Of a DNA stretch of 41,145 nt, positions 6,178-15,084 are shown piece by piece. The stretch spans positions 1 through 41,145 of the IMG/VR virus record IMGVR_UViG_2531839440_000003; one strand, written 5' to 3'. The first letter of the stretch is position 1. Each line of letters starts with the position of its first letter. A model generated the notes under the pieces. It was given only the letters and a program-made list of their open reading frames with translations, was not told the origin of the DNA and made no database searches. This DNA is from a virus. Taxonomy: Duplodnaviria > Heunggongvirae > Uroviricota > Caudoviricetes. The position numbers and the translations under genes are program-made.

Positions 6178-6585
6178 TTACTGATGTTTGTTACGTTTGC
6201 GAGCTTCTAGTAGCTCGGTGAATAGGCGATTAAAATTCTCAACGCGGGCACGGAGTTCGCTGATTTGTGCTTGCTGCTCTGATTTTGGAAGTGCGCGATA
6301 CAATCGCAACATCTCCAACTCATCTTCCGATAAGTCTAAGGCGCTGTTGAGTGCAACTGGTGGATCTGGTGTTTTATCCTCGTCACCAAACAGTATCCAA
6401 GTTGGTGAACATTGCAATACCTCAGCCAGGCGATGCAAATTTTGCCCACGCGGGGCTGTATGGTCGCTTTCCCATAGTGAAATTGATGAGCCAGATACGC
6501 CAGCGGCTTTGCTTAAATCGTTTTGACTTAAACCAACCTGTTTGCGTCTTTCTCTAATTCGTTGACCTAAAGTTTTCTCGTTCAT
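6178..6585 (-). CDS. dicA: DicA-like HTH (XRE-family) prophage repressor
   Basis: 135-aa ORF with N-terminal HTH (LSQNDLSKAAGVSGSSISLWE) and the segment LQCSPTWILFGDEDK, which I recall from E. coli DicA; divergent from the Cro-like gene. Confidence 0.75.
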   Translation of the reverse strand: MNEKTLGQRIRERRKQVGLSQNDLSKAAGVSGSSISLWESDHTAPRGQNLHRLAEVLQCSPTWILFGDEDKTPDPPVALNSALDLSEDELEMLRLYRALPKSEQQAQISELRARVENFNRLFTELLEARKRNKHQ

Positions 6586-10703: not shown

Positions 10704-10886
10704 ATGCGAAAGTTTAAAATAATTATTGAAACGGGAATAGCCGGTGGAGATTTCGAGGATGAATTCGAAGTGGATGATGATGCGACGCCTGATGAAATAC
10801 ATGACGAAGCAAAAGATATTTTCTTTAACTACTGCAATTACTCATATCACGAAATAAAAGACGAAGAGGAAGAACAAAATGGCTGA
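10704..10886 (+). CDS. Very acidic 60-aa protein
   Basis: About 40 percent D/E; SD AGGAGG (10675..10680) separated from AUG by hairpin CCGCCCGAAAGGGCGG. Confidence 0.45.
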   Translation: MRKFKIIIETGIAGGDFEDEFEVDDDATPDEIHDEAKDIFFNYCNYSYHEIKDEEEEQNG

Positions 10887-11055
10887 TTTTGGTTCAACTA
10901 AATACAACGTCAGTTTTGAAGAATGGCATGAACTGTTAATGGACTATGCAGAGTTACGTGGTGGCAGTGCTGCTGATGCTGAAGCATGGCGTGATGATTA
11001 TGAAGCAGGAAAAACTCCGGTCGAAGCATATTGTGATGAGTGGGGCGATGAATGA
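10879..11055 (+). CDS. Acidic 58-aa protein
   Basis: Hand-found (below track cutoff): MADFGSTKYNVSFEEWHELLMDYAELRGGSAADAEAWRDDYEAGKTPVEAYCDEWGDE; overlaps both neighbours. Confidence 0.4.
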   Translation: MADFGSTKYNVSFEEWHELLMDYAELRGGSAADAEAWRDDYEAGKTPVEAYCDEWGDE

Positions 11056-11567
11056 GCGAGATTAATTATCAGGAAGGGCATGAAACGGCAGGGCAGGCAA
11101 AACCAGTTGCATGGCGATATCGCTACGTGAAAAAAGACGTTACAGACTTTCAGGGGAAGCCGTGGGCTGGTGACTGGAAATATGTACCGACAAAAGAGGA
11201 TTGTAACGACAGGCCGAACTATGAAATTCAGGCCTTATTCATCGGCCCGCCAGTCCCGGTGACATCAGAAGGACTGGTTAAAGCCGTGCGCTTTTATGAA
11301 CAGGTAAAGCGTGAGAATCCGCCAGTCGAAACAGGAGAATGGAAGGATGCTGTTGACTGGGTGCTCAGAGAGGCCTGCTGCGCTGCCATTCTGGGTAAAG
11401 CTGACAATCCACCAGCATCCGGCAATCAGGTTAGCGAATTAACAATGTGGGTTAAACGACTGGTCAGTCAACTGAAAAAAGCTCAGCCGGACTGCAAATT
11501 ACCGGAGAAGGCGATGGATTACCTGAAACGAAATGGACTGATAAGCGTGGAGGATGTTTTACGATGA
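11052..11567 (+). CDS. Hypothetical protein
   Basis: 171-aa ORF, start overlaps upstream stop (ATGA). Confidence 0.5.
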   Translation: MSEINYQEGHETAGQAKPVAWRYRYVKKDVTDFQGKPWAGDWKYVPTKEDCNDRPNYEIQALFIGPPVPVTSEGLVKAVRFYEQVKRENPPVETGEWKDAVDWVLREACCAAILGKADNPPASGNQVSELTMWVKRLVSQLKKAQPDCKLPEKAMDYLKRNGLISVEDVLR

Positions 11568-11687
11568 ATATTTAGACTAAAGAGTTTGTAACGCTATGTA
11601 AGTGATTTTTTCTGGTTTAGATATTTATATGTCCGGCCAAATTGAGGTGTGTTTAAATGTTATTGCACATTGATTGTAGGGGGAATA

Positions 11688-11867
11688 ATGAAAAACGCAT
11701 TGCAGTTTTTGTTTGTTGCGTTCTGGTTGTTCGCATCATGTATGCCCATCATCTTCACAGCAAGGTATATGGAAAAAATTGATGTTTTGATATTAATGTT
11801 TGGACATATAAATGCCCTTTTTTTAGGGGTGTTCATGGCGGTCATGTGCATTGAATACTGGCGGTAA
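11688..11867 (+). CDS. Small two-helix membrane protein in low-GC island
   Basis: 59 aa from ATG 11688 (GGGGGA RBS); two hydrophobic helices; AT-rich surroundings. Confidence 0.4.
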   Translation: MKNALQFLFVAFWLFASCMPIIFTARYMEKIDVLILMFGHINALFLGVFMAVMCIEYWR

Positions 11868-12126
11868 ATACAGCGAACGCCATTGGTTTAGTTGGATATT
11901 TACTGTGCCGGACAAAAACGGTTTGCGGGGAAATCTTAGTTAAGTAGAATAACTGCGGGTGCTTGAGGCTATCTGTCTCAGGCATGAACACCAAAAGGCA
12001 GATAGAGAAAAGCCCCAGTTAACATTACGCGTCCTGCAAGACGCTTAACATTAATCTGAGGCCCAATCTATGTCTCACAAATGTAGGTTAGCCTCTTACG
12101 TGCCGAAAGGCAAGGAGAAGCAGGCT

Positions 12127-12282
12127 ATGAAGCAGCAAAAGGCGATGTTAATCGCCCTGATCGTCATCTGTTTAACCGTCATAGTGACGGCACTGGTAAC
12201 GAGGAAAGACCTCTGCGAGGTACGAATCCGAACCGGCCAGATGGAGGTTGCTGTTTTCGTAGACTACGAATCTAGAGAGTAA
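12127..12282 (+). CDS. hok: Hok/Gef-family type I toxin
   Basis: 51 aa MKQQKAMLIALIVICLTVIVTALVTRKDLCEVRIRTGQMEVAVFVDYESRE, closely resembling Hok (..[34 protein letters not shown].AYES); AAGGAG RBS; in-frame upstream extension from 12070. Confidence 0.8.
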   Translation: MKQQKAMLIALIVICLTVIVTALVTRKDLCEVRIRTGQMEVAVFVDYESRE

Positions 12283-12291
12283 GAGTGACCT

Positions 12292-12313
12292 GGCGGGAGA
12301 GTAATCTCCCGCC
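12292..12313 (+). other. 3' stem-loop of hok mRNA (fbi-like element)
   Basis: 9-bp stem GGCGGGAGA/TCTCCCGCC with 4-nt loop, 10 nt after hok stop; no T-run. Confidence 0.45.
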
Positions 12314-12498
12314 ACCTCTGATGTGTCGGCATCCTCAACGCACCCGCACTTAACCCGCTTCGACGGTTTTTGTTTTATTTTCAATGCGTTTTAACTTTTT
12401 TAAGACACCGGATATAGAATCCAAAACACTTAAGTAGCGCGCAGGGATAAGAGGGATGGCCCCCTGAAGGGGAGAGCTAATTATCCGGAAGGATTCTG

Positions 12499-13108: not shown

Positions 13109-14167
13109 GTGCGGGTATTACTTCGATCTGTTCCGGTACCGGAACTTGGGCTGGTGGTCCTTAAGCCTGGTCGTGAATCCATGCAGGTATTCCGCAGCGG
13201 TCGTGTACTGGTGGAGCCGGAACCGAAAAGCATGCGCGGTCTGCCGTCCGGAGTCGTTCCTGCCGTTCGCCAGCCATTGGCGGAGGATAAATCACTACTG
13301 CCATTTTTCAGCGATGAGCGGGTGATTCGTGCTGCTGGCGGTGCTGGTGCGCTGTCTGACTGGCTGTTACGCCACGTTAAATCCTGCCAGTGGCCTCATG
13401 GTGACTATCATCACAGTGAAATCGTCATACATCGTTACGGTACCGGCGCGATGGTGTTGTGCTGGCACTGCGACAACCAGCTGCGTGACCAGACCTCCGA
13501 ATCACTCGGGCAACTTGCTCATCAAAACCTGTCAGCATGGATGATTGACGTCATACGCCATGCAGTGAATGGCACGCAGGAGCGGGAATTATCGCTGGCT
13601 GAATTGTGCTGCTGGGCTTCTGTAAATGATGTAGTGGATGCCATGACCGAAAATATGGCGCGTCGAATCCTGAAGCTTCCGAGTGAAAAAATCCGCTCAG
13701 TATACCGCGAGAGCGACATCGTACCGGGAGAGCAGACCGCCATCAGCATACTGAAGCAGCGCACAAAAAATATTGCGCCGTTGCCTCACGCCCACCAGCA
13801 ACAGAATCCACCACAGGAAAAGACGGTGGTCAGCATTGCCGTTGATCCGGAGTCACCGGCTCAGTATCTCCAGCGCCAGAAACCACAACGGGAAGATATG
13901 CCTGTATACACGCGTTGGGTAAAAACGCAGAAATGCATGACGTGTGGCAATCAGGCAGATGATCCGCATCACATCATTGGTCATGGACTGGGAGGGATGG
14001 GAACAAAGGCTGATGATTTGTTTGTTATTCCGCTGTGCCGTAAATGCCATAGCGAACTACACGCCGGGGTAAAAGATTTTGAAGAAAAACACGGCAGCCA
14101 GCTGTTGTTGCTGATTCGTTTTTTAATGCACGCGAGAAATTCGGGTGTCCTGAAGTGGAAAGCATGA
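13109..14167 (+). CDS. DUF968-family phage protein (YdfU-like)
   Basis: 352 aa; C-terminal Cys/His cluster CMTCGN...HHIIGHGLGG...CRKCHSELH; directly upstream of rusA. Confidence 0.6.
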   Translation: MRVLLRSVPVPELGLVVLKPGRESMQVFRSGRVLVEPEPKSMRGLPSGVVPAVRQPLAEDKSLLPFFSDERVIRAAGGAGALSDWLLRHVKSCQWPHGDYHHSEIVIHRYGTGAMVLCWHCDNQLRDQTSESLGQLAHQNLSAWMIDVIRHAVNGTQERELSLAELCCWASVNDVVDAMTENMARRILKLPSEKIRSVYRESDIVPGEQTAISILKQRTKNIAPLPHAHQQQNPPQEKTVVSIAVDPESPAQYLQRQKPQREDMPVYTRWVKTQKCMTCGNQADDPHHIIGHGLGGMGTKADDLFVIPLCRKCHSELHAGVKDFEEKHGSQLLLLIRFLMHARNSGVLKWKA

Positions 14168-14533
14168 ATGACTGAACGCATAGAATTTGTTTTGCCTTAC
14201 CCGCCAACGGTGAACACTTACTGGCGACGTCGTGGCAGCACATATTTTGTATCAAAAGCCGGTGAGCGTTATCGCCGGGATGTGGCGCTTATTGTTCGCC
14301 AGCAGCGGCTGAAATTAAACCTGTCCGGAAGGCTGGCGATAAAGATTATTGCAGAGCCACCGGATAAACGTCGTCGTGACCTGGACAATATCCTGAAAGC
14401 ACCACTGGATGCGCTGACGCATGCCGGACTTCTCATAGACGACGAGCAGTTTGATGAAATTAATATTGTGCGCGGTCAGCTCGTTCCTGGGGGGCGGCTG
14501 GGCGTGAAGATTTACAAAATTGAGAGTGAGTGA
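14168..14533 (+). CDS. rusA: Holliday junction resolvase RusA
   Basis: 121 aa; LPYPPTVNTYW and RRDLDNILKAPLDALTHAGLLIDDEQ, matching the RusA family; sits before Q-like gene. Confidence 0.85.
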   Translation: MTERIEFVLPYPPTVNTYWRRRGSTYFVSKAGERYRRDVALIVRQQRLKLNLSGRLAIKIIAEPPDKRRRDLDNILKAPLDALTHAGLLIDDEQFDEINIVRGQLVPGGRLGVKIYKIESE

Positions 14534-15084
14534 TCGTAAATATGATATACCCGGAAATTACAGGCAAAAGCGGCGAGCATTTACGTCTAAAAACGCTGGA
14601 AGCCGTCTGGATCCAGGGGAAATTACGGATGTGGGGGCGTTGGTCGTACATAGGTGGTGGCAAACCAGGAAATATGTTCAATCAGTTGCTGACATCCAAA
14701 AAACTGACAAAAACCGCGATCAATGAAGCCCTGCGTAGAATCAGGGAGTCAGGGATTGATAAGCCAGAGCTGGAAGCATTCTTGCGAGAGATGATCGCTG
14801 GCAGACAGAAGAGCTGGTTGTCTCACTGTACTGATGCAGAGGCGTTACGCATTGATGGGGTGATAAGTAAAGCGCTTGCACGTTATCCTGGATTGATTGA
14901 TATCCTGCGGCAAAGATACGAAGGGCGGGGGATGAGTAAACGCAAAATGGCTGAATTGTTGAATGAGGTTCACCCTGAGTGGTGCTATACAACATGCCGC
15001 AATCGTATAGATATGTGGCTGAGAATAGCTGAGTTTATTCTGTATCCACTGATGCGAGATGCATTTTCTTTTACTGACGCTTAG
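14530..15084 (+). CDS. Putative late-gene antiterminator (Q-like)
   Basis: 184 aa immediately upstream of a promoter plus short-transcript terminator; assignment mainly positional. Confidence 0.5.
   Translation: MIVNMIYPEITGKSGEHLRLKTLEAVWIQGKLRMWGRWSYIGGGKPGNMFNQLLTSKKLTKTAINEALRRIRESGIDKPELEAFLREMIAGRQKSWLSHCTDAEALRIDGVISKALARYPGLIDILRQRYEGRGMSKRKMAELLNEVHPEWCYTTCRNRIDMWLRIAEFILYPLMRDAFSFTDA

Follow-up and report, generated by a model that had tools for sequence, protein, structure and literature searches.

A candidate two-helix inner-membrane protein gene in an AT-rich islet next to the hok/sok locus of a lambdoid prophage

The window, i.e. the entire 41,145-nucleotide stretch of viral DNA that was analysed, is by gene content and gene order a lambdoid prophage, and a near-identical E. 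coli prophage has the same gene order. A short open reading frame for a hydrophobic protein of 59 residues lies in an AT-rich islet between the replication genes and a Q-type antiterminator, in the same orientation as both. On the plus strand 5' of the islet are YdaT-family, DnaC/IstB-like replication, DUF977, DUF4406 and Ea22-like genes; several small uncharacterised genes also lie 5' of it, one of which (10704-10886) encodes a 60-aa acidic protein that matches Pfam DUF7167 (7.9e-15). Three tRNA genes, Met(cat), Arg(tcg) and Arg(tct), follow the Q-like antiterminator and a DNA methylase gene and occupy 16844-17093, a position in which tRNA genes are known from many Stx-type lambdoid prophages. 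The features of the locus and its surroundings are the following:

6178-6585, minus strand: CI-like HTH repressor gene, upstream of the islet
11052-11567, plus strand: upstream gene of 171 aa, phrog_660 (8.8e-75), a family without assigned function
11570-11937, no strand assigned: AT-rich islet module, bounded on the left by the upstream gene and on the right by the hok module
11677-11683, plus strand: Shine-Dalgarno sequence AGGGGG, 4-5 nt 5' of the ATG, read from the sequence
11688-11867 including the stop codon, plus strand: predicted 59-aa small membrane-protein gene (MKNALQ...IEYWR), from the list of open reading frames
11736-11747, plus strand: S-C-x-P motif, codons 17-20, in helix 1, invariant alignment columns
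11802-11828, plus strand: G-H-x-N-A-L-x-x-G motif, codons 39-47, in helix 2, invariant or near-invariant columns
11957-12132, plus strand: hok mRNA leader and sok region (Rfam RF01794, 120 bits, E 5.5e-27)
12127-12282, plus strand: hok toxin coding sequence of 51 aa, frame read from the sequence; Pfam HOK_GEF at 6e-22 on the mok/hok frame
13109-14167, plus strand: DUF968 gene, 3' of the islet
14530-15084, plus strand: Q-type antiterminator, 3' of the islet

A marked drop in GC content had been claimed for this DNA in the original prediction, and the drop is real: in the 41-kb prophage the AT content peaks at 11570-11870, a 301-nt stretch with a GC content of 0.352 against 0.503 for the whole window. 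Equally AT-rich 301-nt segments make up 0.13% of the total and every one of them overlaps this same stretch, and GC measured over 200-nt segments is 0.34-0.385 across 11500-11900 with flanks of about 0.45-0.55. The right boundary of the islet module was set by the LF82 prophage Tritos, whose hok module matches the window from 11938 onward only. On the left side the 3' end of the phrog_660 gene (11403-11567) exists as two strongly diverged alleles, mosaic joints occur in this gene at about 11403, 11421 or 11487 in related loci, and its last 80-160 nt accompany the islet in every one of 80 related viral loci.

The small hydrophobic peptide had been read correctly from the outset, with its ATG at 11688 and its stop codon ending at 11867 on the plus strand. 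The Shine-Dalgarno sequence that precedes it in the window is AGGAGG in the allele of phage PhiR42_1. Close copies alone cannot settle whether this frame is coding, because identity is 95% or more across all 1569 E. coli records with the islet, and a first protein search gave only E. coli and Shigella sequences of more than 75% identity plus many truncated or chimeric forms. An exhaustive HMMER search of 1.84 billion representative sequences, together with a profile search, found a second subfamily (MRKILMYLCISIWIVISCVPIILTSEYLTEASIMALMFGHANALCIGVFISIIYIECWR). This paralogue also has 59 residues, is 44% identical to the window protein in an ungapped alignment that runs from Met1 to Arg59, and has a Shine-Dalgarno sequence of its own (AGGGA, 7-8 nt 5' of its ATG).

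At the nucleotide level the ORFs of the two subfamilies are 59% identical (41% divergence), and start, stop and motifs are all kept across this distance. For the pair pN is 0.34, pS is 0.70 (near saturation) and omega is ~0.23; the differences number 25, 18 and 30 at the three codon positions, a bias that is not significant by itself (chi-square on the counts, p ~0.2), and dS is near saturation. When the same number of random substitutions was placed on the window ORF in simulation, the frame stayed open in 2.9% of trials, and 0.17% of the copies still open reached 44% amino-acid identity, giving a joint probability of ~5e-5 that argues against a non-functional frame. Outside the ORF the two loci are unalignable except for about 20 nt after the stop and a fragment of hok, and there are indels in the flanks and none in the ORF. 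Copies were also sampled without regard to whether the ORF is intact, through an exact match to a DNA anchor in the non-coding flank 5' of it; in these samples an intact 59-codon frame is present in 115 of 117 viral contigs for the window type and in 34 of 35 metagenome contigs for the paralogue. Hydrophobic ORFs arise easily from T-rich DNA, a point on the other side. The comparison of the two subfamilies makes it highly probable that the 59-aa ORF is a real protein-coding gene.

Two other readings of the frame were rejected: a 72-aa form that starts at an in-frame GTG at 11649, whose extension is not kept in the paralogue, and a 63-aa antisense ORF, entered as a minus-strand CDS in phage PhiR42_1, whose frame is interrupted by stops in the paralogue. 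Over the islet, the phage records ON470612.1, ON470619.1 and PV340562.1 carry either the name "hornerin" (two records, strand unchecked) or a minus-strand hypothetical CDS, entries that look like mis-annotations because the minus-strand frame is not conserved in the paralogue. Among the RefSeq records inspected neither subfamily is annotated, and the 59-aa protein has no family match in Pfam, PHROG, NCBIfam or PADLOC. The only database names found for the family are "hypothetical protein", "membrane protein" and "uncharacterized membrane protein", and a literature search for the peptide strings found no paper containing them. The family is unnamed and new, within a known kind, the small hydrophobic accessory proteins of prophages.

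The AT-rich DNA 5' of the ORF had also been described as promoter-like, and this did not withstand inspection: no sigma-70 consensus site 5' of the ORF reaches 9 of 12 matches, and a looser scan gave a single 8-of-12 site in the window, overlapping the start codon, and none in the paralogue. Consensus scans of this kind leave room for a weak or non-sigma-70 promoter. No intrinsic-terminator-like site was found by scan between the ORF stop and the hok promoter, and the 110 nt after the stop (11850-11960) fold no better than shuffled sequence (z = -0.8). Rfam models, applied at the gathering threshold and up to E = 1, detect no family in the islet, and the fold of the islet RNA is not unusually structured (z = -1.1). 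Regarding the antisense RNA or partner gene whose existence had been raised, the scan of the window islet gave no antisense promoter, and the paralogue locus has promoter-like minus-strand sites that lack a counterpart in the window; no antisense RNA, conserved antisense promoter or recognisable partner was found. Since neither a promoter nor a terminator of its own was detected and the upstream genes have the same orientation, co-transcription with the early-right operon would be the likeliest route of expression. The LF82 transcriptome paper has no entry for the 59-aa ORF, and the LF82 hok locus is in any case without the islet; the LF82 hokD gene is transcribed ~3800-fold above the prophage background, a value that is uninformative on the 59-aa ORF (PMC9928086).

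Homologues in other prophages, whose absence would have told against the gene, are numerous. The window-type islet is present in 1568 of 5426 complete E. coli genomes (1569 records and 1632 places at an identity of at least 95%), and the paralogue is present, in single copy, in 1045 of the same 5426. The HMMER search of 1.84 billion representatives gave the two subfamilies only, with no relative beyond E. coli and Shigella; phage and plasmid sequences searched by tblastn yielded nothing further, and a scan of genome contigs turned up just two Shigella copies and one degraded E. coli copy. By these searches the family appears confined to E. coli and Shigella prophages. The site of the paralogue is a fixed chromosomal scar, with ttcA and an integrase fragment on one side and a sitD-type ABC-permease pseudogene and uspF on the other, and the paralogue (829-1008 of locus L205) is the sole frame still intact in it. 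In E. coli NC101 (locus L206, 9001-9551) the scar is a decayed prophage in which, besides the integrase fragment and the sitD-type ABC-permease pseudogene, a DUF1627 fragment and part of the 3' half of hok are left. None of the 15 RefSeq records listed has a feature over the paralogue. Because the scar offers neither an upstream operon nor a recognisable promoter, the paralogue may be silent there.

Variation within the two lineages comprises nine variable sites in the window type (A16V, M28I, I31V, M37I, H40Y, A43V, V48G, V52G and M53T) and four in the paralogue (V6M, S11N, A31V and R33I), and all 13 of these polymorphisms are nonsynonymous. Neutrality predicts that 20-30% would be synonymous, and the chance of observing zero is 0.01-0.05, depending on the transition bias that is assumed. 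Strong purifying selection at present would not be expected to leave such a pattern; the sample is small, and slightly deleterious recent variants, singleton sequencing errors or diversifying selection may each be behind it. In some strains the frame is interrupted by an insertion sequence or a frameshift, one such copy ending in a translated IS1 terminal repeat, and the 59-aa gene is therefore dispensable. Several database variants, most of them out of automated read assemblies, are frameshifted at a run of seven T within the ORF (CCCTTTTTTTAGGGG, 11814-11828). The run was considered as a phase-variation tract and set aside; since the paralogue has no such run, the frameshifts are probably sequencing errors.

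The protein has a GRAVY value of 1.2, and the two helices that had been proposed for it are borne out by a Kyte-Doolittle profile with two hydrophobic maxima and by an AlphaFold2 model (mean pLDDT 73) with helices at 2-24 and 31-58 and a loop at 25-30. A Foldseek search of this model against viral structures returned generic helical hairpins only, with E above 1. Conservation between the subfamilies is concentrated in three segments, S17-C18-x-P20-I-I-x-T24, L36-M-F-G-H-x-N-A-L-x-x-G-V-F49 and I55-E-x-W-R59, with little conservation in the first 15 residues or in the loop. In helix 2, G39, A43 and G47 are spaced by four, and H40 is Y in one common allele. Given K2 (or R2-K3) at the N terminus, an acidic loop and E-x-W-R at the C terminus, the positive-inside rule would put both ends on the cytoplasmic side of the membrane and the loop on the periplasmic side. 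The predicted structure is a helical hairpin in the inner membrane with both ends cytoplasmic and a periplasmic loop of 6-8 residues, in which S17, C18, P20 and T24 of the first helix and G39, H40 and N42 of the second would share the same depth in the periplasmic leaflet. If the model is right, the polar clusters and the small-residue face G39-A43-G47 suggest tight helix packing or oligomerisation, and a polar site that may engage another membrane component. Cys18 of both subfamilies, and of the A16V allele, also matches a PROSITE-type lipobox rule (Cys at 15-35, no charge in the six positions before the box, K/R near the N terminus), which fires in 0.8% of shuffled sequences.

That the peptide gene adjoins hok, as first described, is confirmed by a complete hok/sok locus that starts ~90 nt after the ORF stop. 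The mok frame overlapping hok starts at 12070, and a near-identical genome has the equivalent genes annotated hokD, then rem. The order islet then hok, through about 12376, is found in almost all of the 80 related viral loci, and 55 nt after the paralogue stop a piece of the 3' half of hok remains, at 83% identity (L205 1063-1116). Because a hok remnant also trails the paralogue, the adjacency of islet and hok is older than the split of the subfamilies. The islet and the hok/sok locus after it are nonetheless distinct modules. The hok module (11940-12376) occupies 12,200 places in 4938 genomes against 1632 islet places, with the islet preceding ~13% of related hok loci; the LF82 prophage Tritos has the hok module without the islet; hokD of K-12 Qin has relBE upstream and no islet; and the paralogue persists where hok has been largely deleted, leaving the 3' remnant. 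K-12 YdfW was considered as a positional equivalent of the 59-aa protein and rejected, being unrelated and belonging to a Qin locus without the islet.

The left edge of the hok module at 11938 falls within the spacer of a putative hok promoter (-10 TAGAAT, 11945-11950), so that the -35 region of this putative promoter belongs to the islet module here. Insertion sequences are found between the ORF and the hok promoter in locus L028 (about 11877-11880) and exactly at the hok start codon (break at 12128) in loci L002, L079, L080, L082 and L083, and in copy P0048 the paralogue ORF is joined to an IS1 end. Chromosomal hok loci are known to be inactivated by insertion sequences, with which the recurrent insertions seen here are consistent.

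The protein was compared with known small proteins of phages and prophages. The original prediction had offered a moron-encoded exclusion factor as one possibility, which stays a reasonable guess, and by the definition of Juhala et al. 2000, as given in PMC3594210, the moron half of this proposal stands in part: the islet is foreign in composition (GC 0.35 against 0.50, the lowest 301-nt segment in 41 kb) and has the distribution of an add-on, the related hokD regions of K-12 Qin and LF82 Tritos being without it, while scans of the islet found neither the promoter nor the terminator of its own that a moron should have, a weak or non-sigma-70 promoter being allowed for. HK97 gp15 is a moron-encoded inner-membrane superinfection-exclusion protein (PMC3594210). 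The 59-aa protein resembles it in being small, predicted to lie in the inner membrane, encoded by a compositionally foreign insert of a lambdoid prophage, and accessory rather than core; it differs in having no sequence relationship to gp15 and no Pfam or PHROG match, and gp15, of the YebO family, is encoded in the tail operon from a promoter of its own that is active in the prophage, whereas no promoter or terminator was found for the 59-aa gene. With Hok/Gef the protein shares the character of a hydrophobic inner-membrane peptide of about 50-60 residues from E. coli prophages or plasmids, and the genes are adjacent. It is not a member of Hok/Gef (PF01848), for it has no Pfam match, HOK_GEF included, and two predicted helices rather than one, and its gene lacks a Sok-like antisense RNA, a mok-like leader frame and a fold-back mRNA. 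Set against the type I toxins, it is small and hydrophobic but predicted to have two helices where one is typical, and no antisense RNA was found.

Unimolecular spanins of the phage T1 gp11 type have an N-terminal lipobox and a C-terminal transmembrane helix, and Rz1 is a lipoprotein precursor of ~60 residues. The 59-aa protein is similar to the former in its possible lipobox, where lipidation is putative, and its C-terminal helix. It is not a spanin, however, because the ~14 residues from Cys18 to helix 2 are far too few to span the periplasm, and its gene, unlike those of spanins, lies outside the lysis cassette. To the class II holin S21 the protein is similar in its small size, its two predicted helices and the predicted cytoplasmic location of both ends. 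It differs in that its C terminus is only E-x-W-R (E-Y-W-R in the window protein) and the charged tail is absent, and in that helix 1 is strongly hydrophobic, whereas that of the S21 type is weakly so and able to leave the membrane. The gene also lies upstream of Q rather than in a late lysis cassette as for class II holins, and the near-identical prophage has a class II holin of its own. Neither its architecture nor its location is that of a holin.

Taken together, the evidence moderately favors a genuine, maintained two-helix inner-membrane accessory protein of the prophage region between the replication genes and Q. On induction or infection the gene would be read as part of the early-right operon and the ORF translated from its own Shine-Dalgarno sequence; the product would form a helical hairpin in the inner membrane, and its polar and packing site near the periplasmic face would engage another membrane component. 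As to the role itself, our guess, by analogy with other small phage membrane proteins, is that it may act at the inner membrane by blocking the entry of superinfecting phage DNA or by modulating a host membrane protein, rather than by killing the cell. Exclusion or modulation is ranked above toxicity because there is no antitoxin-like partner, because the two helices are without a charged tail, and because an intact copy stands alone in a dead prophage, although the last is weak evidence since that copy may be silent. Against the favored reading are the lack of RefSeq annotation in the records inspected, the exclusively nonsynonymous polymorphism, the broken copies, and the location of the paralogue in a promoterless scar.

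Cys18 also admits a different architecture, unlikely on balance, in which the product is a small lipoprotein: signal peptidase II would remove residues 1-17 as a signal peptide and a lipid would be attached to Cys18, the mature protein of 42 residues being anchored in the inner membrane by that lipid and by the C-terminal helix. The match of the lipobox rule at invariant Cys18 in both subfamilies and the A16V allele, rare among shuffled sequences, points this way, as do Lys/Arg within the first three residues followed by a hydrophobic core of 12-13 residues and [AVI]-S-C, and the invariance of S17 and C18 when the first 15 residues are as poorly conserved as those of a signal peptide would be; small lipoproteins such as Cor, Llp, Bor and Rz1 are moreover found among phage accessory and lysis proteins. 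The residues after Cys18, [MV]-P-I-I-[FL]-T, are however hydrophobic and conserved and continue a 21-residue helix in the model, an unusual start for a mature lipoprotein that argues against cleavage at this position, and the Pfam lipid-attachment models give no match. A more far-reaching form of this idea is highly improbable: that the family is a hitherto unrecognised class of phage inner-membrane lipopeptides (~42 residues when mature, with one helix) under diversifying selection, as the 13 nonsynonymous polymorphisms would suggest, excluding incoming phage DNA at the periplasmic face and kept by E. coli phylogroup B2, out of a dead prophage, as a domesticated defence gene.

The second membrane-acting toxin envisaged in the original prediction found no support, in view of the missing antisense RNA and conserved antisense promoter, the unremarkable mRNA structure, the two helices and the intact paralogue without a partner. 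The broader reading is improbable, in which the protein damages membranes, as a type-I-like toxin, a peptide for lysis or killing or a pore former of the holin kind, and stays silent in the lysogen until induction releases it. Strong hydrophobicity (GRAVY 1.2) and the glycine-zipper-like face formed by G39, A43 and G47 would suit such a protein, glycine-zipper-like motifs being known from pore-forming helices, and hok adjoins the ORF in both subfamilies; other small prophage membrane peptides are toxic, e.g. Hok and YdfD of Qin, annotated as a "lysis protein". A single transmembrane segment is the rule for type I toxins and a charged tail for holins, whereas here two transmembrane segments are predicted and the charged C-terminal tail is absent; no antisense promoter is common to the subfamilies, no RNA family matches, and the mRNA fold is ordinary (z = -1.1). 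A separate lysis cassette with a class II holin is present in the near-identical prophage, and the paralogue is intact in 34 of 35 copies without a recognisable antidote, a weak point since a promoterless silent gene would also persist. Comparably low probability attaches to a frame that is non-functional or only marginally functional, i.e. one that is open in T-rich, horizontally acquired DNA and persists because the element is young, the islet being kept for some other reason or for none. This would fit the zero of 13 synonymous polymorphisms, the lack of RefSeq annotation in inspected records and of a detected promoter, the confinement of the family to one species group and the existence of broken copies; it accords poorly with frame, length, start, stop and motifs that are identical across 59% nucleotide identity (joint simulated probability ~5e-5), with a Shine-Dalgarno sequence in both subfamilies, and with indels that are in the flanks and never in the ORF. 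Least probable is a functional coupling to hok, e.g. as a protein-level immunity factor or modulator of the Hok toxin. Hok follows almost every window-type copy and the adjacency predates the subfamily split, but the two are separable in both directions, the islet occupying ~13% as many places as the hok module, LF82 Tritos lacking it, and the paralogue outliving hok; regulation of hok runs entirely through Sok RNA and the folding of the mRNA, and hok is not known to have a protein partner.

The 59-aa gene does not challenge current concepts, and its function may prove minor. Small inner-membrane prophage proteins elsewhere are exclusion factors, toxins or regulators of host transporters, and one or other subfamily of the present family is carried by about half of complete E. 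coli genomes (1568 and 1045 of 5426, a possible overlap not being subtracted). Left without annotation in the RefSeq records inspected and without a match in the protein-family libraries searched, the gene thus illustrates how small prophage membrane proteins escape notice. Being only 180 nt long, widespread, easily deleted and accompanied by a diverged paralogue, it is a practical candidate for screens of small prophage proteins.
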